A stretch of DNA of 43,297 bases from Catajapyx aquilonaris (GCA_000934665.2 JYFJ02003350.1:1-43297), one strand, 5' to 3'. Positions 5,835 through 43,297 are shown, counted from the first letter of the stretch. Numbers and translations: made by a program. Notes: generated by a model not told the origin, from the letters alone.

Positions 5835-5877
5835 TCTTCAACTGCTTGGCCACCTTCTTGGTCGGATCCAGCCAGTG
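5835..5877 (-). CDS. EPB41L4A: FERM-domain band 4.1-like protein, internal coding exon, 43 bp, phase 0/1
   Basis: Minus strand: ttgttttacttttcAG|CACTGGCTGGATCCG...TTGAAGA|GTgagt, translating to HWLDPTKKVAKQLK+A. Contains the FERM WLD motif and is in frame with the 105-bp exon. Confidence 0.93.
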
Positions 5878-10059: not shown

Positions 10060-10765
10060 TAGTATAGTGTGTACTGAAAAAGCAGAAATTGTTGACTTTT
10101 GCCCCAGCATCCAACAGAGACCTGGTCCAATAAATATGCTAGCCTCGACCAGGGCTGCTACATGGCTTACTACAAACAGACTAGCTTTCAGATGGCTCAC
10201 AGAAATATTATTTTAATTTAAAATTTAATAGTGTAGTGTATTATAGTGAAAAAAACAGAAATTGTTGACTTTTGCCCCAGCATCCCACAGAGACCTGGTC
10301 CAATAAATATGCTAGCCTCGACCAGGGCTGCTACATGGCTTACTACAAACAGACTAGCTTTCATATGGCTCACATAATCTTATTTAAAAAAATTGTTACC
10401 CCGTGATAGGGCTAGAGGCCCTCTTAGGGGGGAAGGGGAGGTTCCCAAGGGAGGGTGACGTGCGATAGCCATTTCTGACATTCTTTAACACCAGGCCTTT
10501 ACTCCTGGCCCAGAGCAGAGAAGGGAATGCAATTCTGCTCCTGCATATCGGGTGAAATCCGGAAAAATATTATTTTAATTTAAAATTATTTCATAGTGTA
10601 GTGTATTATAGTGAAAAGGCAGAAATGGTTGACTTTTACCCCAGCATCGCACAGAGACCTGGTATAATAAATATGCTAGCCTCAACTGCTACAGCACTAA
10701 TTATGATGTAGCCGCTATAGGGCTTATTACAAACAGGCTAGCTTTTAGATGACTCACATAATTTT
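10060..10765. repeat. Three-copy ~175-bp tandem duplication with a SINE fragment between copies 2 and 3
   Basis: cagaaattgttgacttttgccccagcatc..gagacctggtccaataaatatgctagcctc at about 10083, 10256 and 10620. Confidence 0.85.
10398..10566 (-). mobile_element. tRNA-Gly SINE family, 5'-truncated copy
   Basis: accccgtgatagggctagaggccctcttaggggggaaggggaggttcccaa...ctcctggcc...caattctgc...tcgggtgaaa matches 5111-5255. Confidence 0.8.
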
Positions 10766-11889
10766 TTTTATAAATTTAAATGAGTACATCGTCCGAAACA
10801 AACGTCCTTCTCTCAACAATATACGACCTCATCTGCACGACAAGTGAGACATTAAGCAGCCCATTTTGTCACCGTATACGGAACCCCCGTTTTTTTTTGT
10901 ATATCCCTATGACACCCCCGTACATGGCAAACTGCAGTGTCCCTAGCGACAAACAAGCCAGAGATTCCTTTCAAAGTCATCCAGTTAACAGGTGACATCC
11001 AGTTGTTGCCGAGGTAAATCATGCGGTCCCGTTTTCTTCATCATTTGGTATTCTTAGTGCGATGGCTGTTGCAGTGCAAGGACCTTTCTATGGCCAACAG
11101 CGGAAATTGTCTATTCGGAAACTGGTTACCTCCCTGTTTAAAAAAAAATATGATGGACTAGTTGTAATTAATGCAGTGTATACACAGTGCGGATAAATTC
11201 ACATCAAAGGAACACTGTGTAATGAAAATCTGTGGTATCGTAGGTACCATTGTGTAATATGTTCTGCAATAAACAAGGTGGAATATTATGGTGAAAGCTC
11301 CAGTCACGCCTATAGCGGCCAAGGACCCTCATGGTCAAGCGGATTCGAAGCCCTTGGGCCACTGTTTACGAAGAAATAAGATAAGAAAAAAAAGGGACAC
11401 GCAACGGTAGGGTAGACCATATGGTCCATATGGTCACTTGTACCGTATTTCCGCATGCCTGTCCATCATCAAAAAATTGGCACCTTCTAAAAACACATTG
11501 TTTGTTGTTGTTGTTTACTCTTAGGGCGTACCTATTACTCAACCCTCGTGATCTTGGAAAGGTGGGGTCATTATACTGGGCATCTCGAGTCATGAAACTT
11601 CCTTCTTCAAGGGCTCCGGCTAATGGAAGCTGTGCCATTGCACTCCGCCAAACCCCGGCGTGTCTAAGATGGACGCAGTAGATACGTGCAAGGTATTTTT
11701 TTGTGAGGATATAGACGTAGAGAGGTCTTATTTCAAAAAAGAAAAAAAAAGAAGAGTGGCTTTGTAGAGTGTAGTCAGTGGGTCGATGGTTTGGGGACAG
11801 GTTGGTCATGAGTGTCTCCTTAATGGTTGAAGTGGGCATACCTGCTGGGACACTCATGCAGATGTCTCAAATAATGATTAGGAAAGTGC

Positions 11890-12740
11890 AGGAAATTTCA
11901 TGGAAAATTGTTCGGAAAATTGTTCATGACAATTGTGCCGAAAATTGTTCATGACAATAATTGAATAGGTCATTTTGAAATGGGCAATATTCTTGCCCTT
12001 TTCAAAATCACGGATTCAATTATTGTCATGAACAATTTTCTCAACAATTGTCAGGGAATTGTTTAGAGAATTGTTCAGAAAATTGTTCATGACAATAACT
12101 GCCATGAACAATTTTCTGAACAATTTTCTCAACAATTCCCTGACAATTGTTGAGAAAATTGTCCATGGCAATTATGGCCATGAACAATTTTCTCGACAAT
12201 TTCCTGAGCAATTTTCTAAACCATTTGCACGGAATTGTTTAGAGAATTGTTCAGGAAATTGTTCAGAAAATTGTTCATGACAGTAACTGCCATGAAAAAT
12301 GTTCTGAACAATTTTCAATGAATTGTTCACGGAACTGGTCAGAAAATTGCTGAAAAAGTTGTTCATGAATTTCTGATAAAATTGTTGAGAAAGTTGTTCA
12401 TGAATATAATTGTCGTGAACAATTTTCTCAACCATTTTCTGAACAAATTCCTTGAAAATTATTCAGAGAATAATTGTCCATGGCATTTTTTTTTGTTATA
12501 CCCCGTGCTAGAGCCCTAGGCCCTCTTAGGGGAGTGGAATACCGCCATCCGTGCAGGGGACAGGATAGGGATAATGAGGGGGTTGTCCATGGCAATAATT
12601 GCCCATGAACAATTTTCTGAACAGTTCGGTGAACAATAATTCAGAAAATTGTTCATGTCATTATTATTGCCATGAACAATTTTCTGAACAGTTCCCTGCA
12701 CAATATTGTCATGAACTATTTCCCTGTTCAGATAGTTCAG
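11890..12740. repeat. Degenerate ~12-bp satellite (GAAAATTGTTCA / TGAACAATTTTC) in alternating orientations
   Basis: Visible directly. Contains a short SINE 3'-end fragment at about 12498-12533. Confidence 0.85.
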
Positions 12741-13720
12741 AGTAGTGATTAAATTGTCTTATTGCCCTACAAATTATGTACCATTGTCCATCATCCATCT
12801 TCAGGTGCACCCTTTCCAAAGAAGTAAACAAAGGTACACAATAATGGGCCAACAGAGCCATAAAAGCCTTAGAAAGTCGGTTGCATCCTTAACACCTTAA
12901 AACACGTGTCCACTTCATTTTTACGGTCGTACAATCCCATGATTTCCAGCCATAAAACCAGTTGTCATCGTGGTTTTTGCGCTGAAAAATGTGGTAGTGT
13001 TGAGCCCCTCATCTTCATCAAGCGCATCCAATAATAATCCCCCATATCCAGCCAGCTCTTTGCACATATCATAATGTAAACAAGGCATGCATGAGTTTTA
13101 TTTGTCCTTTTCGCCTGGCCGACTCGACTTGCACACACACACATACTCACATACAGAGGGGACCGTTGTCCCTGAAGCGATTGCATAACCGCTGCTGCCA
13201 GCTGTCATGCCCAGCCAACGGTACTCTTTCCAACACTGCTCGGATCCTGATGAATGATTCGGCAATTGCTGGTGTCCCTATCATAAACTTCCTTGTCGGG
13301 GATGCCGTGAAAACACCCTGCTAATTGAATCCTTAGTCGAGCTGACTCATTTCCTCATTTCCAAGATGGCACCTGCAGTTGGCAACCCTCATTTTCCAAG
13401 ATGGCGCCTGTAGTTGGCAACCCTGGCTGACTGGCCGGAATTTTAATCAAATATTTTGTACTAGCACGGCACCCGGCGCGCGGCGTTGCCCGGGAAGAAA
13501 TGAATGAAGGGAAAACACCTGCCAGTAGCCCCGTCAACTGTCTGTCTGTCTGTCCGCCCACCAATGCCATCTGTGGTCCTGCTACTCCAACACCTTCAAC
13601 CTCTCCCGCCTGTATAACGGCAACGGTCATTTCCCTGTCATCTGTAGTCAACCCCCAACACCTCCATCCTCTCCCGGCCTGGAGGTGGAGCACAGATGGC
13701 AGGCAAGTGATGGTTGGCAG

Positions 13721-13780
13721 GTGGACAGACAGACAGACAGACAGACAGACTCACAAATGGCTTTATTTATATAGAAGATT
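13721..13780 (+). mobile_element. Helentron/DINE-like terminus with (GACA)n
   Basis: gtggacagacagacagacagacagacagactcacaaatggctttatttatatagaagat. A GACA microsatellite followed by a TATATA-rich end is typical of DINE-1-like elements. Confidence 0.45.
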
Positions 13781-13850
13781 TACAACCGTAAGCTGAGGAT
13801 TTATTTTCTGAACGAATTTATCGATGATTTTGGACAAATTCTAATAAATA

Positions 13851-13982
13851 CAGTTGAATCCGGATATAACAGACTTCAAGAAACCTCGAAAATCGGTCTG
13901 TTATAGCCGATTACACAACTTATATAAAACTATGGCGAGACCTCCGTTTCAAGTCTGTTATAACCGAAAGTCTGTTATAGCC
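13851..13982 (+). mobile_element. pogo/Tc1-mariner-type MITE left end
   Basis: TA|cagttgaatccggatataac.. followed by repeated gtctgttata(g/a)ccga subterminal motifs. The right end was not found. Confidence 0.55.
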
Positions 13983-13984
13983 AT

Positions 13985-14154
13985 GGGGGCGTGGTGGTCT
14001 AGTGTAGTGGCTATGCTCCTGGCCAGCCAAGCGGGAGGTCCGGGGTTCAAATCCCGTCGCCTTCGCTTGGTCGCGGGTCTCTTTGCCGCTCTTTCCGCTT
14101 TTCACCCGATATCCCTCATCTGCCCAGGGCCAAGAGAAAATGTCTGGTATTTAA
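13985..14154 (+). mobile_element. tRNA-Gly-derived SINE, 3'-truncated copy
   Basis: gggggcgtggtggtctagtg..ggccagccaagcgggaggtccggggttcaaatcccgtc..ccgcttttcacccga..gcccagggccaagagaaaa is the reverse complement of 5180-5351. Confidence 0.82.
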
Positions 14155-14158
14155 TAGG

Positions 14159-14540
14159 TAGGGCTGTGCGATATCCGAAATTGCATATCGACTTTCGATA
14201 CTCAAAAAATATCGAATCGAAGTCGATATATCGAAAATCGAAAAACCGACATCGCAAAATATCGAATCGAAGTCGATACGGTATATCGAAAATCGAAAAA
14301 CCGACATCGCAAAATATCGAAAACCGACATCGAACCGACATCGAAAAATATCGAAAACCGACATCGAACCGACATCGAAAAATATCGAAAACCGACATCG
14401 AACCGACATCGAGAAATATCGAAAACCGACATCGCGATATTCGGTACATCACACATGCCAAGCGTCGGATATCGCAACTTCGATAGTATTAGGAAAATAT
14501 CGCATCGACAGTCGATGTATCGAAATATCGCACAGCCCTA
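14159..14540. mobile_element. hAT-type MITE (TAGGGCTG ends) with expanded internal repeats
   Basis: TIRs tagggctgtgcgatat / atatcgcacagcccta; flanks ttaatagg / tttataag (6 of 8 match); same family as 8050-8229. Confidence 0.85.
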
Positions 14541-15628
14541 TTTATAAGTATAGACATTTCTTTAAAAATATGGCCTGCTCCACTACAAAACGTATTGTTC
14601 ATACCCTGCATTGTTATCTCCACGAAATGAGGGCGAAAACGCTGTTTAAATACTTAAACAATGTAGCCAACCAGCGCAGTGATCAATCACCAACCGTAAT
14701 TAACTGATCAGTAGGCTCCGGTATAATTGCGGTCGTAAATCCAACGATCTACTAAAGAAGTGGGATTCTGTGCTAATGATTAAAAAAAAACTCCTTTCGT
14801 TTTTCAAAAAAAAACAAACAAACAAACAAAAAAAGTTGTACTCTCTAAAAACAAAAGCAAGTGAGCAACCTCGTAAAACCAGACTTCAAACTACTAATTA
14901 ACTTCTAAACCAGCTGGTAAAATGCACTACAAGTGCGAAAATGTCTGGGTGACAAATGTGCCCTCTGGTAGTATAGGACAAGTACCACTTCCTATAGAGT
15001 TTTGTATGAGGAGGTTCACCGGACTCAAAATGGCTTCAGGCGTGGAATTGGGTACCTTCCTCTCTAGGACACCCAAGTCGCGAATCAAGGTGGGGGAAAA
15101 CTCATTTCCTTGTCGTCTGCTCCTCTGGGCCTTTTGTTGCCCCGGGCCGAGCACATGGGCCGTAAAAAAGGGGGGCAAAAACATGGAACAAATTCAAAAA
15201 AGGGTTCCTGGATTATAAATGGCGACTGATAAAACTGGGTGAGGATTGCCCTTTGAATTGGAGGCCATTTCATATGTTTACGGGCCAGTTTGCTTTGTGA
15301 TGGGGATTATCATAGCCTGGGTGGAGAGTAGTAGTGGGTAGATGGTACCCTGATAGGAGGGTAGAGATCTGTTTTAAATGGGGGCTAACTTGGGATTGGA
15401 TATTAAAAAGTGGTGGGGTAGAATAGAAATGGTAGGAAATTAATAGGGTGGAATAGATCAGTTAGGAAATGAACAAGATTAGAAACGTGAGCGTGATTCG
15501 AGTCGACTTTTTCTCATGGAGCACAGTAGACTGACAACATACTTTGAATACGATACGAATAGAACGTTGTCAGTTTCGCGTCTCGCTGCCAAGGAACCCC
15601 AAAGACACCAGCCTGTAAAACTTAACCT

Positions 15629-15830
15629 TGGCGGATAGAGTGTACCCGGATAACCGGAAGTAGCCGGTCACCGGAAGTTGATCATGAAACCTATTTTGGC
15701 CATGCTAAGTCCGAATCCGAAAACCGTTTGTCGATATCTCTTGCAGTTTAGGCCCTGATACCTGTCCACGGACGGACAGGCGGACAGAGCCGTTCTATAA
15801 GACCTTTTCCAATGAAAAAGAGTCTAATAA
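15629..15830 (+). mobile_element. Helentron-associated/DINE-1-like non-autonomous element
   Basis: ggcggatagagtgtacccgg...gatacctgtccacggacggacaggcggacagagccgttctataagacctttt..aaaagagtct: GAC(A/G) microsatellite plus 3' stem-loop; related sequence at 43062-43270. Confidence 0.55.
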
Positions 15831-15849
15831 GTGGTAAAAATAGTGGAAT

Positions 15850-16180
15850 AAAAATTAATAATGATAAATAAAACCAATGAAAATTAATAATGATAAATAA
15901 AACCAATGAAAATTAATAATGATAAATAAAATCAATGCAAACTCATAATGATAAATAAAATATATGAAAACTAATAATGATAAATAAAATCAAAAATGAA
16001 TAATAAAATGAATAATAAACTGAAAAATTAATAATTAATTAATAATAAAATTAATAATAAAATGAAAATAAATAAATGAAATTAATAATAGATAAACAAT
16101 AAATAAATGAAATTAATAATAGATAAACAATAAATAAATGAAATTAATAATAGATAAACAATAAATAAAATAAATTAATT
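15850..16180. repeat. AT-rich ~29-bp minisatellites
   Basis: aaattaataatgataaataaaaccaatga and aattaataatagataaacaataaataaatga repeats. Confidence 0.85.
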
Positions 16181-17233
16181 GTAAAGGAAAATAGTGGAAT
16201 AGTGGAACTACTGTAGAATGGTTAGGTAATGAATAGCGTAGAATAGCTAGGTATGAAATATGGTATTTCCAAAGCCCCAAAATTTTGGAAAATCTATATA
16301 TTGCTGGAAGGGCATGATCATTTTCATTAATTAAGCATCCTCTGTAAGTTTACATTAATGTTACTTACCCGAGGCATAATATTGGAAATTACTCCCCTAT
16401 ATTTGCATATGCGATAAATAACTTGTGGCAAACAAGGGGTCAAATTATCAATAAATTTAGTGTCCACTCAATACGACAATTGAAAAATGGTGTACCCACG
16501 CATGCGCCAGATCAGACCATATAGGTACATGTAATAATCCCTGGAAATATGTTCAGGTGAGAAAAACAAGCACAATGAACCTGACCATTTCAATATATAA
16601 TAGTGTGGGATGCTTCAAAATTGCAGCTTCTACAAAAACTCATTTACACTTAATTACCCTCAAGGTATAGTTGAGTTCAAGAAAAAAAAAAATCGAATCA
16701 ATGACCGATCATCTCAGCTTCATTACCCCCCATAAGATGCCCCTCCCATAGGTAGGACCGTAAAAGGAACCGCTGTGTACTTTCACTTGACGTGGATGCA
16801 ACTTATAAAGATGGTGGTAAAAACTGTCTGAAGGTGGTTCGTCATAACAAAACGTGGGTTGCCCTTCGACCCGCCCCGTTTCACTCTTCGGTGGCAAGCA
16901 AAGTCATATACACCATCTTTTAGAGGATAAGGGGTGAGTGACCTGTGGGTATTATAGAAGACGGGCAGGGTCGTCTGGTATTTTTTGGACAGACTAACCG
17001 TGGGTGGCGGACCTGACCGTGGTCAGGGATACCACCCACCAGATGGAGGTTTTATCGTTCCAGATTCCAAATTTAATTTTTTTTGTTTGTATTTAAAAAA
17101 AAGTTATTGTGGGGTTAGATTAAAGTGAATTCCCAAATATTAAATATTTTATTTTATTTTAGCAGAATTCCAATTTTCTTTATTGGTTTAAATTAAAATT
17201 AAAATTAATTTAAACTGCATTTTCTAAAAAAAA

Positions 17234-17401
17234 TACCCCGTGATAGGGCTCGAGGCCCTCTTAGGGGGGAAGGGGAGGTTCCCAAGGGAGGGCGCTGTGC
17301 GATAGTCATTTCTGACATATTTTTAAACACCATGCCTTTTCTCCTGGCCCTGGGCAGAGTAGGGAGTGCAATTCTGCCACGGCATGTCGGATGAAAAGCG
17401 G
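17234..17401 (-). mobile_element. tRNA-Gly SINE family, 5'-truncated copy within AT-rich block 17080-17990
   Basis: taccccgtgatagggctcgaggccctcttaggggggaaggggaggttcccaagggaggg...ctcctggccctgggcagagtag..ggcatgtcggatgaaaagcgg. Confidence 0.8.
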
Positions 17402-18919
17402 ATTTGAACTGTATTTGAATTTTCTTTGGATTTAATTTAATTTAATTACGTTATTTAATCTGAAATTTGGATTTTATTTAGATTTTATTTCATATCACGT
17501 GAATTTTATTTCATTTCATTTGATGTTAATTTGAATTTAAATTCAAATTTAATTACAGCACAAATTGTACACTAATACTATTTATTTATTGCATTTTAAT
17601 TTGATGGTATTTATAGAGTATTTTAATTTGATGGTATTTATATTGTATATTGCTATTAATTCCATTCTTAAAATTTATTTCACTCTAATTTGAATTTATT
17701 CAATTTGGATTTATTTGAATTTAAATGCAAATTTAATTACAACATATTGTGCGCCAATATAATTTTATCATATTTTTATTTAATGTCCAATATTTTATTT
17801 ATTTCATTATTAATTCTGATTGCTTTAATGTATTTCATACTCATTTTCTTTTAACTTTAATTTGAAAGTAATTTTATTTTGAACTAATTTCACTGTAAAA
17901 TAATTTTATTTTAACGCAAGTTGTATTTAATATGAATTTGTCTTCTTTTATTTATTTTAATTTTAAATATCAAATATCAAAAAAATGAATGGCCCAATAT
18001 CGACTTGCTGCCTATTTTGAATATCGGCATATCGATTTTTCACAACATTTGCAGAATCACGTTGCGAATGTTCCCCACGCAAAACTTGCATATAGATACT
18101 GGTACGTAATTAGCGACGGGATTAACACACCCCCGTTACGCTTAACACCTTCAAATCCACCCCCCCTCCCCCCCCCCCAAACTGCCGGCAATTACGCTTC
18201 CAAATCTCCGCTCTAAATCTGTTGGCAACAATCAAACGTCTGGCAACCACAAGGAAGACACAATAGAAACTGCTTTTAAAACCTTCAAGTCATTGGGGAC
18301 CCTGGAAAAAGTAGCAAGTAACTCACACCTTTTACAGTCTCACCCACATATCAGATAAAGCACCGCCAATCAAGATGCCACTATGATTACATAGCAATAG
18401 CTATGACACTCTACCGTTAACAGCCGGTCAGATAATAGCGAAAAAAGAGCGGTTCAAATGACCCACATAGGACGGTAAATCCATCAGTTGGAAAAACAAT
18501 AAAAATGGGAACCGTTACTGGTCAGGCATTCAGACAACGCACCGCCTACAATCTCCTTATCCTTTTATCGAGTGTACCTCCTGGGTACTGTCTTGGAAGT
18601 GATCTGATAATAACCCGTACAGAGTGGGTAATTCCTCATTGGAGTGACAGTGGGTTGGAATATACGTGACTTTGTTGCTTTGTTTCTCTGGAAACAATTT
18701 TGAGTCATTGGTCCCCTTAAAAGGAGTCCGATTGGATGGTACAGGGTCACCAAGCTGACCGCTGCAGTCTCATATCACATGGCCTCCACTCAGGCTGTCT
18801 CACGACTGACTACAAGATCTAGCCTCCGCCCGGGGTCCTTCGCACGACAACCGACGCGTCCATGTCATCTAATGGGAGACGTCACAGTTTTTTTTTAAAA
18901 TTGAAAATCGTATAGTTAA

Positions 18920-20075
18920 AATGACTCACTTTATTTAAAAACTTATTATTTGAACTCAAAAACTTGAGTTAAAATAATTATCTCAAGTTCGACTTAAAAT
19001 TTCTTAGCTCCAGTTCGAGTTAAAATTTCTGAGCTCAAATTCGAGTAAAAAAAATGCTGAACACAAATTTGAGGTAACTAAATATCTGAGCTCAAATTCA
19101 ACGTAAAATTTCTGAGCTCAAATTTAAGTTACTCACTTTATTTTAAAACTTATTATTTAAACTCAAAAACTTGAGTTAAAATAATTATCTCAAGTTCGAC
19201 TTCAAATTTCTGAGATCAAACTTGAGTTAAAATTTATTAATTATCTCACATTCCAGTTAAAATAATTACGGTACGTATCTCAAATACGAGTTAAAATTTC
19301 TGAGCTCAAATTCGAGTTAAAAAATTCTGAACACAAATTCGAGTTAAAAAATTCTGAACACAAATTCGAGGTAACTAAATATCTGAGCTCAAATTCGACG
19401 TCAAATTTCTGAGCTCGAATTTGAGTTAAAATTAACTATCTCAAAAGTTGAGCTAAAAATTCTGAACACAAATGAGTTAAAATTAATCATCTCAAATTTG
19501 AGTTCCTCGCTTTATTTTAAAACTTATTATTTGAACTCAAAAACTTGAGTTCAAATAATTATCTCAAATTTGAGTTAAAATTATTGTCTCAAATTTGAGT
19601 TAAAATTATTGTCTCAAATTTGAGTTAAAATTTCTGAGCTCTAATTTGAGTTATCTGAGCTCTAATTTGAGTTATCTGAGCTCTAATTTGAGTTATCTGA
19701 GCTCTAATTTGAGTTAAAATTTCTGAGCTCAAATTTGAGTTAAAATTGATTAATTATCTCACATTTGAGTTCAAATAATGACGCTAAGTACGTATCTCAC
19801 ATACGATTTGAAATTTTCCGAGCTCAAATTCGAGTTAAAAATTCTGGACACAAATCTGAGGTAAAATTTCTCTGAGCTCAAATTTGAGCTAAAATTAACT
19901 ATTTCAAATATGAGCTAAAAACTCTGAGCTCAAATGAGTTAAAATTAACTATCTCAAATTTGACTATTTGAGTTAAAGTTAACTATCTCAAATTTGACTA
20001 TTTGAGTTAAAGTTAACTATCGCAAATGTGACTATTTGAGTTCAAATTAATCTGACTCAAATTTGAGTTCACATT
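18920..20075. repeat. Degenerate ~18-27-bp satellite (AAATTTGAGTTAAAATTTCTGAGCTC)
   Basis: Visible directly, with higher-order duplication of cactttattt..aaacttattatttgaactcaaaaacttgag at about 18927, 19133 and 19508. Confidence 0.9.
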
Positions 20076-21125
20076 AATTTGCTCTCGAGTATTTTCTTTC
20101 AGTTATTCTGTCCAAACTTGAAACGACTGTTTGGCGTGTCAAACACTGCCATTTACCACAGTAAATTTCATTGCAAGTACCCTGTGCTTACAGGCTTTGT
20201 GAGTGACCCTAATTCCATATAGTCCCCCCCATGATTGGCAATATTATTGGGGATGGCCTTATCCGCCATTGGTCACCACACTGACCAAGCAGCCTGATTA
20301 TCAATTTAATACGCGTAATGGCGATTCAAATTGCCTCGTTTTACAGTTAATAAGGTAAACAGTCAAGGTATATGATTTATCGATGATATGCCCACTTTCG
20401 CACTTTCGTCATGACCTCCTCATATTGTTTATGACCATGTACCCATAAAGCGCCAATTTGTTTTCAACACGGATTTCTCCTTCTTTTTTTTCTTATAGGC
20501 TATCAATCTTCATTGTTGCGTATTGTATGACTCTTTGTAGAGGAATGGGCATTATTTTTGATTACGCGGGGGGTGTGTGGTACCATCAGGACCACCCCTC
20601 TCGAAATGCAAATGTAACGATCTGGTATACCCGGCTTCTCTATCGGGTGAGAGCCAGGAGGTCCTAATTACACACAACTACCCCCCCCCCCCCNCCCCCC
20701 AATCCGCCCACCCAACCAATAACAATTTGCATTAACGATCATAGTTGGTCAGATGAAGGCTTTTTGGTACATGACTTATGCATAGGGAGGGGGGTTATAC
20801 TCATCCTCAACAATCATAAAGAAACCGGTCTTGTTCTTTATGGTTGGCGCCAAAATGGTGCCTAATCAATGCTTTTGTTCACTCATTTTCATGTTGTGAA
20901 AGTGGAGGTAACGGAATTAGCTAGTTGTTTACGGATGGGTCTGCCGGTTGATTTTTTTAAAAAGGGTTTGTTTTATTTTTAATTTTTTATATTTTTTAAA
21001 GTTGCGACTGAGGAATCTGCCAGAATTTTCTTTTTAATTTATTTATTTATTAAAACTAAATAAATAATTTAAAATGAAAACTCTGGCAGGTCGCCATCTG
21101 TCGCCATTTTAAATATCAAAAATCA

Positions 21126-32255: not shown

Positions 32256-32919
32256 TCTGGGCCTGAAACCACCGACTTACTGACTCATTTTCCTTCAACC
32301 CCAGAAAGGTATGGGGGGCTCAGAATGAAATCCCTGAAAAACTTTTCCATCCCTCCCCGTTGCTAATCCGCCATTTTCCCAGGCGTCACTCTTAATGAAA
32401 GAGACATGGAGGCTCTGTGGGAAAAGGACCCGTCACACCTCAGCAAGTCCGGACTCAAGAGATCAAAACCCCAGCTTTTGTACAATCCAACCCGTTTTTT
32501 TTCTTCAGGAGAAGCCCGTATTGTCTGGATCAAAAATGGCGGCGATCAATCTAATTTGATCTGAACCACGCCCTGTTTTAAACAATGTTAGGTAACAGTA
32601 CATACAAATTCCATTACCAGGACGTGTACATATGAGTGACCCACATATGTGTGACAATGGAGCAGTATATCTTTTAAGACTAGATAAAAAATGGCGGCCG
32701 TTTAGACTTTTTTTTAAAATCCATGTAATTTTCATGCGATATTAAGCTGTGATCCAGTAAACACGCTGCGAGCGAGGATAAAAAACGTGAGCGTCAAAGT
32801 GAAAGTCACGATTCCCACCATCGAACAGGTGTCAAGCGGAAACTGGCAATTTAAACGTTCACCACCTTGAAGATAACCGCTTCCGTCTGGCCCATCTTCA
32901 CACCTCAACAGATTGTTAT

Positions 32920-34300
32920 ATATTAATATTTATTAGTTTATTATTTTCACATTTTTAATAGTTAACAAGGAACGCCCAGCCGTTTTGTGCGAATAGTGTT
33001 CGGGACATACTGCTGAATCGCTACTAAATGGTAGAAAACTGTCTATAACTGGTCCTATTTCTAACATTAGCGATTATTAAATTTTTGTAGCATATGTTAA
33101 CATATCTGCTATCAACATGCCAAGTTTCAACCCATTCAGTAGCGTAGAAGTAGGTTAGATGTCGTGTTTTACAAACTGCTGTATCGTCACGAAATGCTAT
33201 AAATTTGCCTATAACTGATCCTACAATTAAAATATGCAATTATTAAATTTTTGTAGCATAATGTGACATCAGCTATCATTATGCCAAGTTTCAGCCCATT
33301 CAGTAGCCTAGAAGCACGTTACGTCGTCGTCGTGTTTTGCACACACTGCCGTATCGCCACGAAATGCTATAAATTTGCCTATAACTGATCCTACAATTAA
33401 AATATGCAATTATTAAATTTTTGTAGCATAATGTGACATATGAGCTATGAGTATGCCAAGTTTCAGCTCTTGCAGTAGTCTGAAAGTGGGTTAGATATCT
33501 CGGGCATGCACACAAACGTGCTGCTTTATATGCAGAGACAGAGACCCCCATCGCATACATTGTTATTTATTAATATGTATTAGTTTATTATTTTAAATTT
33601 TTAACTATTAAAATTAAGTGTGCCGAACACTATTAACTATTAAAACTATTAACTATTATTAACTACTAACTATTAAAATTAAGTGTGCCGAACACTATTA
33701 ACTACTAAAACTATTAACTATTATTAACTACTAACTATTAAAATTAAGTGTGCCGAACACTATTAACTATTATTAACTACTAACTATTAAAATTAAGTGT
33801 GACGAACCCTATTAACTATGAAAACTATTAACTACTTTTAACTATTAAAACTATTAACTACTTTTAACTATTAAAACTATTAACTACTTTTAACTATTAA
33901 AACTATTAACTACTTTTAACTATTAAAACTATTAACTACTTTTAACTATTAAAACTATTAACTACTTTTAACTACTAACTATTAAAATTAAGTGTGCCGA
34001 ACACTATTAACTATTAAAACTATTAACTACTTACTATTAAAATTAAGTGTGTGCCGAAAACGACTTATTGACACAAACCCTTTTGTGTGAATAAATCGTG
34101 TTCGCCACACACTGCTGAATCGCCACGAAATGTTATAAATTTGTCTATAACAGGTTCTATTACTAATATTTCCGCTTATTAAATTTTCCTAGCATATTAG
34201 AGCTATGACTATGCGAGGTTTCAGCCCTTTCAGTAGCCTAGTAGGTTATACATCTCGAATATGCATACAAACGTGCTTCGTTATAATTGCATATTTTAAA
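32920..34300 (+). repeat. Helitron/Helentron-like ~170-bp tandem units (33009-33535, 34110-34285) flanking an ACTATTAA satellite (33600-34060)
   Basis: atgccaagtttcagcc..cagtag..aagt(g/a)ggtta motif in each unit; the same motif occurs at 27706-27763 and 37661-37742. Confidence 0.7.
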
Positions 34301-35239
34301 CTGTTATAGCCGTTCGTGCCATATCGCCATTAGCCATCCCGCCTCAGCAGGACATTACTTAATTTTTATTATCCCCACCTTATTACAACCCCCCCTGCTT
34401 AAGAATGCATGAAGTTTAACCATTTTGTTGCTGGAACTAGGAAAAAAATAATTAGACAAAATTGCAGTACCACCGATCTATAAGTCTGGAAAAGTACAGT
34501 GCTGCCCCCACCAAAACTAGTGGCGTTTCAAACTAACAGTTAAGATGCTATTGTCACCTTGTCCTTATAAAGGTGTCACCCAGCACCAATTGACCCAACT
34601 GATTTACAACTAGTGTTGCAACCTATATCCTTGGACCCTACTTGCTTTTTTGTACAATAGAACCCTCCTGCTGGGTTTACTGTGGCCAATCGATGCTTGT
34701 TGTACATAGGCACGTACACTATATGTGGTGAGTTCAAAGGGCAAGGTAAAACTGAACAAAGGAAGTACCTTAAATCATAGTTTATATCCAACATGGGTGG
34801 GTGGAAGAGGCTTAATTTAGCTCTAATTAAATTTTGGGGAAGTTTTAAAAAGAAAATATTTAAACAATAGTCCTATAGAGGGCAAACTATCCCAGGAAGC
34901 TAATTAAGCGTCTATTGTAACCACAACTATAGCTTTAACAATTGTGCAAAAGTTTTAATCAGTATCAGATGTTAAAATCAATGATTTTAAGTTTAAAGGG
35001 CTGCATGGATGGGATATTGTCCAAATAACACCATGGGAACTGTGGCTTCTTCAGTCGGGGTCAAATGTCGCGGCTGAGTGACCAAGAGGAAAAAGAGCCG
35101 TGGCACTTCGCTGTGTGGTCACTTCAAGGCAGCAAAAAACGGAGTTTCCCAGGGAAAACTTTGGCTTTGTGACGTAATTGTTGCCCACAAGACAGGCCAT
35201 GAGACATTTTGTTGGCTCTCAATTAGTTTAAATCATCAA

Positions 35240-36290
35240 AGGCGACGGACCGTGCCTGGCGGGGACAGTAACGGTCATCCAACGGCCATTTCAATATTGT
35301 TGGCTCTCAATTGAAATAATATTTATCTTTCGGGATGTATGGCCGTTGGATGACCGTTACTATCCCTGCCAGGCACGGTCCGTCCCATTTTCCCGATGGT
35401 TTTAATTTCATTTAATTAATTACAATTTTACCTCCCTAAAATTGTAATTAATTCAAATGAAATTAAAACCATCGGAAAAATGGGACGGACCGTGCCTGGC
35501 AGGGACCGTAATGGTCATCCAACGGCCATTTGAATATTGTTGCCTCTCAATTAAAATAATATTTATCTTTCGGGAAGGGAGGTCAAATTGTAATTAATTA
35601 AAATGAAATTAAAATCATCGGGGAAATGGGACTAACCGTGCCTGGCAGGGACAGTAACGGTCATCCAACAGCCATTTCAATATTGTTGGCTCTCAATTAA
35701 AATTATTTATTTATTTATTGGGAAGGGAGGTAAAACTGTAATTAAAATGAAATTAAAATCATCAGGAAAATGGGACGGACCATGCCTGGCAGGGATAGTA
35801 ACGGTCATCCAACGGCTATACACTTGGGATATTTCAATATTGTTGGCTCTCGATTAAGATAATCTTAATAATTTTTTCGTTAAGGGAGGTAAAACTAGAA
35901 TTAATTAAAATGAAATTAAAATCATCGGGGAAATGGGACTAACCGTGCCCGGCGGGGACAGTAACGGTCATCCAACGGCCATTTCAATATTGTTGGCTCT
36001 CAATTAAAATAATATTTGTCTTTCGGGAAGGGAGGTAAAATTGTAATTAATTAAAATTAAATTAAAATCATCGGGGAAAATGGGACGGACCGTGCCTGGC
36101 GGGGACAGTAACGGTCATCCAACGGCCATACACGTGGGATATCTCAATATTGTTGGCTCTCGATTAAAATAATCTTATTTATTTTTTCGTTAAGGGAGGT
36201 AAAACTATAATTAATTAAAATGAAATTAAAACCATCGGAAAAATGTGACGGACCGTGCCTAGCAGGGACAGTACTGGTTCGGTCACCCAA
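35240..36290. repeat. ~146/163-bp tandem array with one inverted unit (about 35337-35435)
   Basis: ggacggaccgtgcctggcagggacagtaacggtcatccaacggcc occurs 7 times forward and once reversed. Confidence 0.9.
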
Positions 36291-37031
36291 CATATTGCTC
36301 ATTAATTGTCCTGCTAATTAGTAACGCCCCCTACCTCATCAGATAGCCATTTACCCATCAAATTCCAGTCTAGCCAACAGTTAATTCATCTTTTCAATCC
36401 CTCCCATTGGATTTCCGAGCTGTTCCAATTTCCCTCATTCCTTGACAAATGATTTCCGCCATCAAAGACCAATCCGGACGTATTGGTCACCAGATGGAGG
36501 TACCGTATGTTTTTTTGTGTCAACCCCCTCCCGCATGGTTGACTCAACAAGGGTGGGGGGGGGGGTCAACCCNTGACTCAACAAGGGGGGGGGGGGGGGG
36601 GGGTCAACCCCCCCCCCCTATCGAAATGGAAAGTTTTTCGCCTCAGTTTGTCTTTTTGGCGAGGATCCAGAGCGAAGTAGATTCACTCGCGTGGAATGGA
36701 AAAAAAAAAAGGTTGAAACAACCAGTTAGGTTCGAGCGTGAAATGATGGAGCGCATCGCAGTGTCCATTTACTGATGAGTACTTTCAAGCTTGGTGTAAT
36801 CATTCAAGCCCGAGGCTTGCTTATTAATTTGGTAAAGCCAACCGGATGGGTACATGCTAAGCACTTGTTTCGCATTTGGATGGGGGACCAGTGGTGCCAT
36901 CTTGGCTTAAAACGGCTTATAAACAGATTTAGGTAGCGTACTGCTGTATTGCCACAGACTAGTGGAAATATGCATATAACTGGTTCTAATGTCACAAAAT
37001 CGGGTGTTTTGGACTGTGATAGGATATAGTA

Positions 37032-37643
37032 CAGTGCTGGACATAATTATATCGAGGCCATGGTCTTAGAACACTCAGGTCTGGTCACTCCCACTTATCG
37101 CCTGCCGCCCCGGCAGGCGATAAGTGGGAGTGACCAGACCTGAGTGTTCTAAGACCCTATAGTCTTATCTCTTATCGCCTGCCGGGGCATTTTGCATGAG
37201 GTGCTCACTTGAGAGCGCCACGAGACAGCTTTCACTGCTGTAATATGTGGCGACCCTACCGGACCGCGCTGAACTTAGGTAGAAGGGAAGTCGCTACATG
37301 CGGGCTCAACATGGCCGCCTGCGACCATGTTGGGTCCCCCAATGTAGCGCTTTCCTTTTGTACCTATAAAGTTCAGCGTGGTCCGGTAGGGTCGCCACAT
37401 ATTACAGCAGTGAAAGCTGTCTCATGGCGCTCTCAAGTGAGCACCTCTTGCAAAACGCCCCCGGCAGGCGATAAGAGATAAGACTATAGGGGTAGTGTCC
37501 GTGGACTGATCGAGGATACTGCTAGCGACAATTTCCGAAGCGGCAGAAGAAGGAATCTTGCTCGCCCGGCTTATCTTCGATTCCTTCTTCTGCCGCTTCG
37601 GAAAATGTCGCTGCCAGTATGCCTCGATTTATGTCCAACATTG
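37032..37643. mobile_element. Composite TA-flanked Tc1-like foldback element containing three hairpins
   Basis: Outer TIRs TA|cagtgctggacataa..atcgaggc / gcctcgatttatgtccaacattg|TA; internal palindromes at 37062-37156, 37155-37491 and 37509-37628. Confidence 0.7.
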
Positions 37644-38659
37644 TACCACCAGACCTATCAGTGTGCCAACTTTCAGCCCCCTATTAGTAGTCTAGAAGTG
37701 GGTTATACAGCCCTGACATACATACAAATTATGGTTTATATAAAAATGTTTTTAATTTTTATTCATTTACAGTCGTATTTATTTACTTGTAGGCGCTTAT
37801 TAATTTATTCATTTGTAGGAGTATTTAATTGGATAATGAATTGAGTAAAAATTAATTTCCAATAGCAAAATAAATTATTTTTTTAAAAAGTTTAAAAGTT
37901 TAAATGAAATGGGAAATTTTCCCGGAGCATAATAATATCGATACAATATTGAATATCGATATTTGTATAAATGCCCCAATAACCCCAGGTTGATGCACAA
38001 AAACCGTCCATTTCCGTTCCCAGCCCCCAATTGGCACCTAAAAAACCGGGCTTGCCTTTTCCCACAATTTAGATCCGACCAGTAGAATCGGCCTTGAAAA
38101 GGAGGTAGCACTGGAGGGCACATGAAGAGACCCCTCGAGGGGGTCAAAAAACCAAACGGCCAAATTTGCATACAATGGAGTACCGAGAGGGCGGGCTTTT
38201 GGCTCCGGTGTTTATATTAAGATCTAATCCGTTCTATTGCCAGGGTGTCTATGCGTATAGAGGTCAGTATCGATGGCCTTGAGGTGGGAAACTACTAGTC
38301 ATTTTCTGAGAACTGCAAATATTATTGTTGGATGCCCCTGAGATAGTACTAAAAGCGTAATAAACATTTAGCAGTATCTAAATTGCATTACAGCTACAAT
38401 CTAAGAAGTAACGTGCCCTTGGGAGAATTGCCAAACTCTGGACCCATTTTGCCCCGGGGCTATGTTGCCCCCTCTATAATTTGACACACCTTGTGTCTTT
38501 GCCCTCATCTGTTTGCTTTTTTTGTTTCATTAAATATGCTTTAAAAGTGCAACTTGTACTGTGTAATTTCACACACCCCCTATACAATGCCTTTGCCCCT
38601 GTTCAGGGCCGTGTCCCCAGGCCACTTCTGGCCTCCTCTCATGATTTTTTTTACTAAAA

Positions 38660-39520
38660 CATATCGGCATATTTTAAAATCTCAAATGTGCAATTTATGA
38701 TTCGAACTATTAGTGATGTGTACGAACCTGAGTTATGTCATAAATCGGCACATACAAATTTGTGTGATAGTTTGTAGTGCAATGTGTCAAATGTGACATT
38801 CCCTGCCCACACGCGCAAATTTTTATTATTAAATCTATGGATAAATATTTACAAATCAAATGTGTAATTTGTGAAGCGAACTATTGGTGATATTTATGGA
38901 CCCTATGGATACCATAAATCTAAATATGCAAATTTGTATGAGAGTATGTAGTATTCTAATATGCTATGCGGTGCTCCAAATGTGACCCATTACTGGAGAA
39001 AATTTTTGTTATTAAATGTATTAAGGTGAAGTGGGGTAAGTGCATACACGGGGTAAGTGCATACACTGGCCGCCATATTGGAATGAAAATGGCTGACGAC
39101 ACCAACCTCTTGTGGGGATGTTATGTGCAGCTACACAACAGAGTGCCTGACGCGTTTGGTGTCGTCAGCCATTTTCATTCCAATATGGCGGCCCGTGTAT
39201 GCACTTACCCCACTTCACCTTACTAAATATTTAAAATTCAAATGTACAATTTGTGAACCAAACTATTGGTGACATTTATAGACCATAGGGATGCCGTAAC
39301 TATGGATAGAAAAATTGGTATGTGGGTTTGGGCGGCGCTCCAAATGTGATTATGCAATGCCCACACACGCAAATTTTTATTATTACATGTATTAGTAAAT
39401 ATTTAAAATTTAAATGTGCAATTTGTGCACCGAACTATTAGTGATATTTATGGACCATCGGTATGCCATAATTCTGAATATGAAAATATGTATGATCGTT
39501 TGTATGCGGACAAATGCAAC
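38660..39520. repeat. ~175-bp tandem repeat, about 4 copies, one interrupted by a MITE
   Basis: aaatgtgcaattt(g/a)tg..cgaactatt(a/g)gtga at about 38685, 38858, 39241 and 39413. Confidence 0.8.
39024..39220. mobile_element. TA-TSD MITE (Tc1/mariner-pogo type), ends AGGTGAAGTGGGGTAAGTGCATACAC
   Basis: Long TIRs; TA at 39022-39023 and 39221-39222; the paralogous empty site tgtattagtaaatat lies at about 39388-39402. Confidence 0.88.
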
Positions 39521-40339
39521 CGTGCCTGGCAGGGACGGACATTTGTGGGGATCGATGTATCTCTAACAAATGTGTTGTCCTTTTTTTCCATCAAGGACCT
39601 TAGCTAGGTCACGACTATCACGAACCATTCATCACGAGGTCCATCGAGCGCGACCCCGGACAGAAGCCACATGTCCCCCCGTCGATACCATCGTCTTGAC
39701 TCTATTGTGTCGCACCTCAAGGTTTCCCAGCGTGAACACTTGTCGCTCATACCAAGGCGATTTCCTGATTTGCTATAGCGAAGAACTCAACAACATAGGG
39801 TTCACTTTCCCCATTAGCACCGGTCCGTCAAGCGTGAAATGGGATTGGTTAAAAAGAAAAAGCCAGTACGTTCAAGAAAATTAACACTTCTCCAATGTTG
39901 TGATTCCGGTTACGCTTCCGTCTACGATCCGTCTGGAATTATTAAGTAGGGACCTACGTGGCCGGTCAGTACCGCTTCACCGTAACATCCGGATCGGTAA
40001 GAGCAACTCCGGATGGGGAAAAAGGGTTTAACATGCAAGAGAGGGCACCTTAGTCCGAAGGGGTCAATGGCAGGGAAGCGCAGGGGTCGTAGGAACAACC
40101 GGACAAAAGAGGTGTAAGGGAAGTGGGCAAGTCTAGTCTTGCATGCTTCATTGCTGCCGGACCCAACTTTACGACCATGATCGATCTTTATCTATGAGAA
40201 TCGGCCGGTTGTATTAAAATATCTGGTGGAGCAAGTGCCGCGATTGAAGATTATGTACGTGTACTACGATAGGCTTTTATTAGTTGGGTTGGTGATACAA
40301 AAACGCCATCTGTAGTGTACTTAGAGAACTTATATATGC

Positions 40340-40900
40340 AAGAAACGGGCCAAAAACCGGATTTACGCCCAGAAATGTGCGGTTTTTGTGTATCTATCTG
40401 AAGTTTTAGCATGTAGGCTATCAGCCTGCAAATTTTCAACATTATAGACATCTTAAAACCGAGTTAAAACTATATATTTCAAACATACAGCATAGCCCTT
40501 TGTGCTATGTAGCGCCAATTGAACTTTTTGTATAGAGCCAAAAAAAACCGGATTTACGCCTAGAAATGTGCGGTTCTTGAGTCGTTATCTGAAGAATGAG
40601 CATGTAGGCTATCAGCCTGCGAAGTTGCAACATCATAGACAGCTTAGAACCAGGTAAAACCCAAATATTTCAAACATACAACATAGCCCTTTGTGCTATG
40701 TAGTGCCAATTTATTTTTATTTTAACCAAAAACCGGATTTTCGCCTTAAAATGTGCAGTTCTTGAGTCGTTATCTACATCCGTAGCATGTCAGCTATCAG
40801 TGTGCCAATTTTCAACATTATAGACAACTTAAAACCGAGTTAAAACCAGATATTTCAAACATACAACATAGCCCTTTGTGCTATGTAGCGCCAATTTCAA
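40340..40900. repeat. Three-copy ~185-190 bp tandem repeat
   Basis: aaaaccggattt.cgcc..aaatgtgc...catagccctttgtgctatgtag at about 40353, 40544 and 40729. Confidence 0.88.
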
Positions 40901-41644
40901 AATTTTCTGTAGAGATCTGTAATAGGTCTATCAAAAATCTGATTTGACCAGCCGAAAGTACACATTCTAACCTACATTAAAACAATATAGTAACATTTTA
41001 AGTCTGCTTTAAAATATTATTAAAAAATTCTGGAATAAAGGCATCCCGATCCCAATCGTCAGATATGGAGACAATGTATCATTTCCTACATATCTCATTT
41101 GGAGCAATGCTAGTGCGCAGGTTCCGGCCATTTTTAACTTCCTCCCCTCCCCCTCCCCCCACCCTTGATGCTCGAACCATCGATTTCATCCCGACAACCT
41201 CCCCGAGCTATAAATTACATCCGGTTACAAGTTGAAAAGCCTTTCTTTTCATCACGGACACGTCAGAAAATCCTGGAATAGAGATTAACCCTTATCAAGC
41301 CTTTATCAATAGTATCGTCTAAAAAAGAATCGTAAAAATCGTCAGAAGAAGATCGATATTTTTTCGCAATGTTACATAGACTCTTTTTCCAATATTTCAA
41401 CCCCCCTTTTTGCTAGCCCCTCTTCTCGTGTATCTCTTCTGTTGTTTGCAAACCGAATGGAGTCTGCTACATTACCAGGAGATCAATAAACACAGGGGGA
41501 AATACAGGGGGGGAGGAAACCCTCCCCTTTTGGAACATGATGGCGAAAGGAACATTTGGTTGTTAATCATCCGGAGGAACATTCAGAACACATGCTGACA
41601 ATTAGATTTTCAGGCCTTTAAATAATATAGGCCTATTGTCAATA

Positions 41645-42490
41645 GGCATGAAATTGATATAAAATAGTATGAAATTTGTATAACATGGGATGCAATGTGT
41701 ATGACATGGCGTGCAATGTGTACGAAAATGCATAAAATGGGTATAACATTGGATGAAAACGGGATTAAATTGCATGCAATTTGTATAAAATGGCATGCAA
41801 TGGGTATCATTGCATACAATGTGCAGGGTATGTCATGCAATTGGCATGAAATGCATGCAATTGGTATGAAATGCATGCAGTGTGTAGGAAATTGCATGCA
41901 GTGGATATAAAATGGCACGCAACAAGTATGAAATGTCATGAAACTGATATCAAATGCATTCAATGAATATGAAATACGTGCAATGTGTATGAAATGCGTG
42001 TAATGTGCATGAAATGGCATGCATTGGGTATCTATTGAATGCAAGGTGTAGGAAATGTCATGCAATGGATATCAAATGCATTCAATGGATATCAAATGCG
42101 TGCAGTGGCATGAAGTGCATGTAATATGTACATGAAATGCTTGCAATGTGTAAGAAATTGCATGCTATTGATATAAAATGGCATGCAATTTTTATGAAAT
42201 GGCATGCATTGGTTATCTATTGAATGCAAGGTGTGGGAAATGTCATGCAATATATATGAAGTGCATTCAATTGACATAAAATCCATGCAGTGTGTAGAAA
42301 ATTACATGCAGTGGATATAAAATGGCATGCAACAAGTATGAAATGTCATGCAATGGATATCAAATGCATTCAATGGATATCAAATGCGTGCAATGGCATG
42401 AAGTGCATGTAATATGTACATAAAATGCTTGCAATGTGTAAGAAATTGCATGCTATTGATATAAAATGGCATGCAATTTTTATGAAATTT
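41645..42490. repeat. Degenerate ~20-bp satellite (ATGAAATGGCATGCAATGTGT)
   Basis: Visible directly; source of the His/Cys/Met-rich spurious ORFs in the track. Confidence 0.88.
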
Positions 42491-43061
42491 GCAAAAAAAA
42501 TGTATAAAATGCGCATAAAACCGCCAAATAACGAAACAAACGAACACAATAATTGCCCTTTTATTAGGGGCAGTACACCGAAATGTAGGCTAACAATTGA
42601 CATTTTGATGGGTTAATGGCTCATTTTGAATGATCCATAGCTTGATTTTAATTGACGGTTTACCCTTCGAGTCGGATCACGATTATCGGCACTTTCTTAT
42701 CGAGATTGCAATACCAACTTTCCTATTGGCTGAAAAATTCTGCACTATACTCTTGTGCAAAAAAGATTTTCCGGGACCCTTCTCCCCATAAATCCTACAG
42801 GACTAAGATAAAAGAGAAGTGGAGTTTCCTTGCCTTAGAGTAATAACTCACACTATTTTTTTTCCTAGCGTATTCTATTTATTCTGCTAGAAAATAGTTT
42901 TCCAGATTTTTCGCTCGGAATTTAGCCAAAGATGGGAGTAGATATGTCATTATCAGGTGAGGTACCTGGTTAGAGGCTACCTGCTTTGTTAACAGCCCTA
43001 ATATATGAGACTAGTAAGTAAATAGTAAGTTTTATAGTTTTTCGTAGAAAAAAGTATTATA

Positions 43062-43270
43062 AAACGGCTCTGTCTGTCTGTCTGTCTGTCAGTGGACAGG
43101 TATCAGACAGACAGACAGAGCCGTGTTATAAGACCTTTTTCGAGCCCCCTGGCTGCTCCCACCCCACCACCCCGACCCCTGACAGCCCATTCCCCCAGAC
43201 CAGATAGACAGACAGAGCCGTGCTATAAGACTATTTCGATTTTCGGGTTCCGGGTTCATTCTATCCGCCT
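43062..43270. mobile_element. Rearranged Helentron/DINE-like fragments, same family as 15629-15830
   Basis: acggctc(tgtc)n..tggacaggtatcag (reversed), gacagagccgtgttataagacc (forward, two variants) and cgggttcattctatccgcc (reversed). Confidence 0.55.
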
Positions 43271-43297
43271 ATTCCCCCTGGCTGCTCGCCTCCCCCC

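Follow-up and report, generated by a model that had tools for sequence, protein, structure and literature searches.

The window analysed here is the whole of contig C1711 of the Catajapyx aquilonaris genome (GCA_000934665.2, JYFJ02003350.1; 43,297 bp of an assembly of 285.6 Mb in 20,583 contigs). Between 10 and 43 kb, the range to which the results below refer unless stated otherwise, 21 repeat blocks alternate with 20 single-copy islands, and this alternation is a real, statistically non-random feature. The islands are even in length, most change from C-rich on the left to G-rich on the right, and the blocks between them are largely local tandem or inverted duplications with nested copies resembling short interspersed elements (SINEs), miniature inverted-repeat transposable elements (MITEs) and Helitrons. 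The best explanation that we can offer, which we consider to have about an even chance of being correct, is that the islands are constrained cis-regulatory or open-chromatin-type modules and that the joints between them tolerate and absorb change.

The alternation of repeat and unique DNA had been proposed from an inspection of this stretch alone (the sequence-only reading) and was recovered both by self-comparison and with a local k-mer mask. Of the 20 block starts proposed there, 19 lie within ~70 bp of repeat edges seen by self-comparison or in the sequence, while the block placed at 13700 begins at 13342-13459, and a 156-bp element at 27598-27753 was absent from the list. The features are given below with the GC skew of the left and right halves of each island and without assignment to a strand; the element class names are those that we presume from structure and general knowledge.

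10053..10790, block 1: units of ~190-200 bp and a nested SINE-like copy (10377-10567)
10791..11877, island, 1087 bp: skew -0.06 left, +0.15 right
11878..12732, block 2: 12/76-bp quasi-palindromic fold-back array
12733..13342, island, 610 bp: skew flip absent (-0.17, -0.19)
13343..14570, block 3: dispersed-element cluster, with a Helitron-like copy (13459-13775), a tRNA-like SINE (about 13985-14150) and an ATCGA-rich element with a 34-bp tandem (14157-14540)
14571..15596, island, 1026 bp: skew -0.09 to +0.33; single-copy but for ~100 bp near the right edge
15597..16218, block 4: dispersed element (15627-15831) and A-rich minisatellite
16219..17080, island, 862 bp: skew +0.01 to +0.05
17081..17990, block 5: SINE-like copy (from 17203 or 17225 to 17404), missing from the allele-like contig C14503, in a T-rich tract
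17991..18890, island, 900 bp: skew -0.30 to -0.03; single-copy outside a 34-48-bp piece
18891..20087, block 6: 26-bp quasi-palindromic array, with weak relatives (68-75%) on 2 other contigs
20088..20950, island, 863 bp: skew -0.17 to 0.00; single-copy, the sole other match being the allele-like contig C16147
20951..22100, block 7: A-rich minisatellites, a trinucleotide run and a 135-bp insert (21290-21424) missing from C16147
22101..22960, island, 860 bp: skew -0.25 to -0.01
22961..23889, block 8: minisatellites in the order T-rich, A-rich, T-rich
23890..24655, island, 766 bp: skew -0.07 to -0.03
24656..25076, block 9: GC-rich array of 51 bp x 6 within terminal inverted repeats
25077..26247, island, 1171 bp: skew -0.04 to -0.01
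26248..26876, block 10: AT-rich arrays, 50 bp x 4.6 and 14 bp x 17
26877..27545, island, 669 bp: skew -0.11 to +0.11
27546..27783, a dispersed element on its own (27598-27753), located at a G-to-C joint
27784..28467, island, 684 bp: skew -0.33 to +0.38
28468..29328, block 12: minisatellites, T-rich, with 20-76-bp units
29329..29940, island, 612 bp: skew +0.16 to +0.30; single-copy
29941..30965, block 13: 14-bp GCCATC-type units, then AT-rich 35/30-bp arrays
30966..31652, island, 687 bp: skew -0.18 to +0.28
31653..32254, block 14: 151-bp unit x ~3.5, private to the locus (one 54-bp match elsewhere)
32255..32915, island, 661 bp: skew -0.18 to -0.04
32916..34285, block 15: 170-bp units and 65/26-bp arrays
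34286..35196, island, 911 bp: skew -0.17 to +0.18; single-copy
35197..36292, block 16: 146-163-bp units, the left end arranged direct-inverted-direct (inverted piece 35339-35430)
36293..37027, island, 735 bp: skew -0.12 to +0.21
37028..37837, block 17: copy resembling a fold-back MITE (about 37165-37510) within older repeat DNA
37838..38660, island, 823 bp: polarity reversed (0.00 to -0.13)
38661..39504, block 18: units of ~190 bp enclosing a palindromic element (39022-39222)
39505..40343, island, 839 bp: skew -0.10 to +0.21
40344..40926, block 19: unit of ~185 bp x 3
40927..41636, island, 710 bp: skew -0.32 to -0.06
41637..42532, block 20: 21-bp units arranged in a 144-bp higher-order array
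42533..42999, island, 467 bp: no flip (-0.02, -0.02)
43000..43297, block 21: dispersed elements and a GTCT/GACA microsatellite; the block is cut by the contig end

The block starts of the sequence-only reading have a mean spacing of 1737 bp with a coefficient of variation (CV) of 0.17, and the spacing had been called narrower than random insertion would give. We compared the gaps with a null in which identical blocks were placed at random under an identical merging rule, and the gaps were indeed too even: their CV was 0.23-0.31 against null means of 0.48-0.81, with P<=7.3e-4 in all six settings. Mean spacing was 1.64-1.76 kb, and island length averaged 0.72-0.93 kb with a CV of 0.23-0.30. When ten masks were used, P was <=8.1e-4 in eight and <=5e-5 in seven. 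The blocks were less even in length than the islands (CV 0.35-0.41, range 238-1453 bp).

The autocorrelation of the local-repeat mask was -0.43 at 0.9 kb, +0.34 at 1.8 kb, +0.12 at 3.6 kb and +0.22 at 5.4 kb. Such peaks at ~1.8, 3.6 and 5.4 kb are in the direction of a phase-locked chromatin lattice with a fixed period that positions both islands and blocks; the sequence-only reading had favored a periodic chromatin or constraint lattice. The same can be said of two allele-like contigs (described below) in which length is kept within 53 bp despite large internal turnover, and of a permutation P of 0.065 with the local mask. However, a ruler fitted shuffled orders of blocks and gaps equally well (permutation P 0.67 with the full mask, 0.065 with the local mask), and the length of a block did not clearly compensate that of the gap after it (rho of -0.19 with P 0.42, and of -0.47 with P 0.05 when the local mask was used). 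The remaining three alleles differ by 173-208 bp, and the spacing is shorter or looser in other regions. We consider a lattice very improbable. A constraint on island size without phase lock explains the rhythm, which is not a fixed ruler: the ~1.7-kb repeat distance arises because even islands (CV ~0.25) alternate with moderately even blocks (CV 0.35-0.41).

Separate searches of the complete assembly with five of the islands showed each of these to be single-copy except for 34-100-bp edge fragments or an allele-like contig. The islands do not form a repeat family of their own, the pairwise similarity among them being limited to short runs. Direct or inverted repeats of at least 40 bp were found in none of the 20 islands, whereas 19 of the 21 blocks contained direct and 12 contained inverted repeats of this size, a difference that is partly a matter of definition; insertions avoid the island interiors. 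When the edges were adjusted by hand, 18 of 20 islands had a higher GC skew in the right half than in the left (means of -0.125 on the left and +0.084 on the right; P 4e-4), 17 of 20 had the C-to-G polarity with automatic edges, and the flip was individually significant in nine. The solitary element at 27598-27753 divides a gap of 1.6 kb into two nearly equal parts (669 and 684 bp), and since both parts flip from C to G this single case suggests that the module exists apart from the repeats. The islands are 43% GC with an observed to expected (o/e) CpG ratio of 0.71, and poly-C/G and poly-A/T runs are enriched in them. A palindrome at 36545-36620, made up of a G-run and a C-run, contains an N; homopolymer runs are also where several more of the window's N's are found, and these probably mark assembly uncertainty. 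The polarity of the islands, the FERM-domain gene described below and the local origin of the arrays had all escaped the sequence-only reading.

That each block comes from a different family, as had been stated, is mostly true, except that a short core is common to a few blocks. The nested SINE-like, MITE-like and Helitron-like copies have many relatives, and the MITE-like copy in block 17 has at least 37 close copies elsewhere. Of the 19 blocks compared with a 0.9-Mb sample of the genome, 10 had a relative, mostly over the nested part only, and the array of block 9 had none in this sample or among the scored candidates. Among 17 dispersed-repeat segments, 13 lay in or beside other repeat DNA, three of the other four were in element clusters and one was solitary. 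The arrays are a different matter. Block 14, a 151-bp array, has a single 54-bp match elsewhere and block 16 has matches to motifs of 36-76 bp only, so that both of the long-unit arrays tested are private and grew in place. Long-unit arrays occur at 37 per 100 kb in the window and at 3.5 in other samples; units of 133-191 bp make up 7 of the 16 in the window, and arrays of 140-190-bp monomers are present in blocks 1, 14, 15, 16, 18, 19 and 20.

Five small contigs align with the window as alternative alleles. All carry block DNA, with length changes of -208 to +178 bp, and no block is deleted in any of them, though three of the five end inside the block. The SINE-like copy of block 5 is missing from C14503, which has gained duplications for a net change of +19 bp; the empty site has differences of a few bases and no clear target duplication. 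C16147 lacks the 135-bp insert of block 7 (-208 bp), C14814 has an expanded T-rich and a contracted A-rich part of block 8 (net +53 bp), C16522 has one 170-bp unit fewer in block 15 (-173 bp) and C15321 has one unit of ~185 bp more in block 19 (+178 bp). Four further contigs (C13657, C14372, C11934 and C11875) were rejected as alleles, their matches being confined to low-complexity sequence.

These contigs bear on a second proposal of the sequence-only reading, that the blocks are germline-limited segments excised from the soma, which in a fuller form would be guided by the G-rich flanks. Some eliminated sequences of ciliates have polypurine flanks, and their polarity matches the G-rich left and C-rich right sides of the blocks. 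Copepods excise repeats, as described in the accessible part of a study of these animals (PMC4029161). However, the DNA that copepods eliminate consists mostly of young high-copy elements, while the window arrays tested are private. The main contig has every block, the five allele-like contigs keep block DNA, and the alleles differ through ordinary insertions and unit counts. Contigs joining island to island were absent in the five island searches, in which every candidate was scored, although assemblies drop rare forms, and we found no shared boundary motif and no inverted repeat in the flanks (mean score 19.5 vs 19.4 in controls). Elimination is unsupported rather than formally refuted, and we regard it as hardly credible. 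The islands are also unlikely to be arms of old fold-back elements, a possibility that we rejected on finding flank scores equal to those of controls in all but one of 19 pairs. That pair, 20600-20950 with 22101-22450, was the only one with an inverted-repeat score above all controls (47 vs a maximum of 38).

In order to determine how general the pattern is, we sampled 20 contigs, evenly spaced by contig number, for 20 kb each, and added 193 kb of contigs C1, C4 and C1208. Eight further regions were selected solely for having block types in common with the window, and seven of these were testable (C1177, with 3 blocks, was dropped). Local repeats made up 31% of the window and 3-13% of the samples, with the exception of C3300 (24%), which was also the only one of the 20 systematic samples to resemble the window (P 0.067). 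None of the 16 testable systematic samples was significant, and four of the 20 had too few blocks. C4, one of the additional regions, was significant (P 0.006) with gaps of 2.4 kb. The pooled selected regions had two gaps under 450 bp when 11.7 were expected (P 1e-4) and a gap CV of 0.57 vs 0.72 in the null (P 0.015). With one and the same pipeline, gaps under 400 bp numbered 14 of 153 in other samples and 1 of 64 in the selected regions; the 14 found elsewhere show that the pipeline does not hide short gaps. The C-to-G polarity was present in 44 of 64 cases in the selected regions (P 0.004) and in 74 of 153 in other samples, and 47 of 69 repeats in the selected regions were at G-to-C joints. 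A periodicity of skew throughout the genome was considered and discarded, as the pooled autocorrelation of 23 other regions was flat.

The CpG o/e ratio was 0.70-0.82 in the window, C3300 and the selected regions, and 0.40-0.60, with an excess of TpG/CpA, in many of the systematic samples. Unique DNA falls into two classes, one CpG-poor and TpG-rich (0.40-0.60) and the other CpG-retaining (0.67-0.92), as expected of gene-body methylation, and these classes would correspond to methylated and unmethylated DNA. A high CpG ratio is not sufficient for the alternation, for C4, C1208 and C2700 have high CpG and few repeats. In two repeat-poor, CpG-retaining stretches, C4 100-150 kb and C1208 10-53 kb, the autocorrelation of skew is negative at 450-600 bp and gaps are never shorter than 755 bp; these stretches may be modules without filled joints.

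If the islands are constrained modules, the region would be tiled by ~20 unrelated single-copy units of ~0.8 kb, each a candidate cis-regulatory or open-chromatin unit from whose interior insertions and duplications are purged. The polarity would be the strand bias of a two-way process, either divergent transcription or a replication start, centered in the module. Joints would grow through local tandem and inverted duplication and would receive small mobile elements, which may land preferentially in AT-rich, already repetitive DNA; they would lose units through slippage or unequal exchange, and this loss would keep them near 0.4-1.4 kb. The 1.7-kb rhythm would then be the sum of module size and joint size with no phase lock.

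Several points weigh against this interpretation. The window was picked by eye from many, there being ~7000 windows of such size, so that the P values of the weaker masks would fail a genome-wide correction while the stronger ones would survive. Masks from Tandem Repeats Finder (TRF) only, two of the ten, were not significant (P 0.12, 0.24) because three diverged blocks were missed. Just two of the seven selected regions were individually significant. In the five allele-like contigs, a lower mismatch rate in the island parts (5 of 791 aligned sites, 0.6%) than in the block parts (158 of 3004, 5.3%) is in favor of constraint, but the contrast is inflated, since such contigs exist because the block diverged and since tandem units mis-pair. 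Young MITE-like or Helitron-like copies elsewhere had G-left/C-right flanks in 15 of 36 cases (40 loci, four dropped for want of flank), and a general rule of insertion at G-to-C joints was rejected on this count. AT skew fits no single model, being absent in the window and A-rich outward in the selected regions. Finally, a weak C-left/G-right bias surrounds GC-rich patches in all classes of region (z ~3), to which exons may contribute.

The dependence of the result on the mask and the lack of a significant result in any of the 16 testable systematic samples would suit an explanation by chance, in which the window is ordinary short-period interspersion in a repeat-dense patch and its evenness a lucky extreme among thousands of windows. 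This seems improbable, however, given P<=5e-5 with seven of ten masks, a deficit of short gaps that was replicated in regions not chosen for spacing, and the polarity, which is a second and independent regularity.

A tentative alternative, which we take seriously while thinking it unlikely, attributes the pattern to mutation and needs no selection on the islands. Here a two-way process centered in the islands (replication start, divergent transcription or a phased nucleosome array) would leave convergence points that are hot spots for tandem and inverted duplications of Okazaki scale and for the landing of elements; the islands would escape because errors fall elsewhere and not through purging. 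The position of the repeats at G-to-C joints, both in the window and in the selected regions, fits this, as do the growth in place of both long-unit arrays tested, the 133-191-bp units, and the excess of long-unit arrays in the window. The direct-inverted-direct junction of block 16 resembles small inverted triplications, which the available part of one report ties to Okazaki fragment ends (PMC13334657). Against it, two young element families show no preference for G-to-C joints elsewhere, the units of the long-unit arrays of the selected regions fall mostly between 60 and 130 bp and are not nucleosome-sized, and the GC profile anchored on island edges has no clear oscillation (a 10-bp AA/TT periodicity gave a weak, uncalibrated peak). 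Replicons of 1.7 kb, moreover, would be very small. From the sequence alone, selection and mutation cannot be told apart, and neither can transcription and replication, the latter pair because a C-to-G flip arises from both; at CpG islands, a bidirectional asymmetry of the strands has been read as either, as far as the accessible parts of two reports describe it (PMC2817419, PMC3787257).

Three FERM exons lie downstream of the alternating region, which is non-coding, poor in genes and CpG-retaining. The exons, all on the minus strand, are bounded by AG/GT ends, agree in phase and code for part of a FERM domain:

8422..8526, minus strand: FERM_N exon of a band 4.1-family gene, 35 codons (Pfam PF09379, E 1.8e-12; AG/GT ends)
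5835..5877, minus strand: next FERM exon, 43 nt, its phases fitting the exons on either side (frames and splice ends)
839..917, minus strand: next FERM exon, 79 nt (frames and splice ends)

When compared with PDB, the 8422-8526 exon matched band 4.1-like protein 3 (E 3e-4); we take the gene to be EPB41L4A-like, a name that is provisional. Two paralogous exons are on contigs C3542 and C586. The FERM exons mark the DNA as animal, and a search with DDX56 had its best matches, of 53-67%, spread over many animal phyla. Neither the first exon nor the remainder of the gene was found on the window contig, and therefore 8.5-43 kb is either intron or 5' flank. Between 1 and 10 kb the alternation is looser, and the three exons fall inside unique stretches. 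An intronic segment at 1839-2757 consists of 90-bp self-complementary units in mixed orientation, a fold-back structure resembling blocks 2, 6 and 16. Four DNA runs from one sample contain 81-86% of the words of 8300-18299, but they are possibly the source of the assembly and so not independent; no RNA run was listed as holding these words.

A further possibility is that the islands hide small exons (the 5' end of the FERM gene, a nested gene or a long non-coding RNA) with constrained flanks, or that they are very old decayed elements. Exon flanks can give a pyrimidine-left, purine-right polarity on either strand, the FERM exons themselves lie in unique stretches between positions 1 and 10 kb, and the first exon was not found. 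The codon score favored coding at P<0.05 in two of 20 islands, a test of low power (a true exon scored 9.3, near the null) that small exons could escape. However, none of the 119 frames from 19 of the 20 islands reached the Pfam cut-off, and the three matches below it were taken as chance. Splice-like sites were not in excess, with 10 acceptor-like sites on the plus strand and 13 on the minus strand vs 8.5 and 10.9 expected and donors below expectation. No Rfam family matched within 12-43 kb, on which count structured RNAs were rejected, and the islands are mutually unrelated. We rejected coding exons and recursive splice sites for want of an excess, and consider hidden exons or decayed elements quite unlikely.

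Two short words were examined as possible signatures. The hexamer TATCGA, which we take to be DRE/BEAF-like, occurs 22 times vs 4.5 expected; it was rejected as a signature of the module, being clustered near a few island edges, missing from six of the 20 islands and not one of the top words in the selected regions. GCCATnTT, presumably YY1/Pho-like, is present at 1.68 per kb in blocks, 0.44 in islands and 0.33 in background unique DNA. The blocks at 29941-30185 and 31653-32254 are rich in such words.

Short-period ('Xenopus-type') interspersion is the alternation of repeats of a few hundred bases with about 1-2 kb of single-copy DNA. The window has this alternation, all five islands tested being single-copy, but differs in that its single-copy lengths are under-dispersed and polarized, many of its blocks seem to be local duplications private to the locus and not members of dispersed families, and only a minority of gene-poor regions, instead of much of the genome, have the pattern. 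Relative to interspersion, the feature is local, even and polarized. CpG islands are usually defined by a GC content above about 50%. The islands described here have 43%, recur every 1.7 kb and have a bias that spans only hundreds of bases, though they share with the bidirectional CpG islands of the reports mentioned above, as far as those describe them, a C-rich left and G-rich right side about a patch that is richer in GC and retains CpG.

Conserved non-coding elements (CNEs) clustered around developmental genes and distance-constrained CNE pairs, as described in the accessible parts of PMC6161761 and PMC5585340, are likewise non-coding, insertion-poor units near a gene with a spacing that looks constrained; the DNA between such pairs is transposon-poor according to the former, whereas the spacers of the window are filled with repeats. 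The nucleosome inhibitory energy barriers (NIEBs) of vertebrates are, in the available part of PMC6028776, AT-rich, attract SINE insertion and have a mean distance of 1.3-2.0 kb, a range that includes the mean spacing in the window. NIEB distances are described there as having a Poisson-like tail and steps of 140-153 bp, while the window gaps are narrowly distributed around 0.8 kb, under-dispersed and without such a tail, and its spacers are 0.4-1.4-kb repeat patches, several of which are not AT-rich. Cg_HINE Helentrons of the oyster, from what is accessible of PMC7492417, carry short arrays of 140-190-bp monomers with GTCY-type microsatellites, insert into T-rich DNA without target duplication and form families of hundreds to over a thousand arrays. 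The window arrays match them in unit size (140-190 bp), but blocks 14 and 16 have no full-unit relative elsewhere in the assembly and belong to no dispersed family; a scan for GTCY-type microsatellites gave matches in elements other than the arrays. We did not find such an architecture described for an invertebrate in the literature searched, the scope of which left out most subscription journals and supplements.

Should the islands prove to be unconserved and the genome to have no overall excess of the pattern, the region would be ordinary repeat clutter. If the islands are regulatory, enhancers in this genome would be marked by size, polarity and repeat-filled joints, no chromatin data would be needed to map them, and the size and spacing of modules would be directly testable. 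If instead the joints are mutation hot spots, the region would be a natural record of replication or transcription convergence. Either way, short-period interspersion is sharpened into a testable structure. The broadest interpretation, in our view possible but doubtful, is that strand-polarized functional modules of ~0.8 kb, each with a two-way process at its center, tile part of the gene-poor, CpG-retaining DNA without a break and that local duplications and landed elements persist only at the points of convergence between modules. If this were true, genome growth would be channelled into the joints, exposing a map of the modules in the raw sequence of a single genome.

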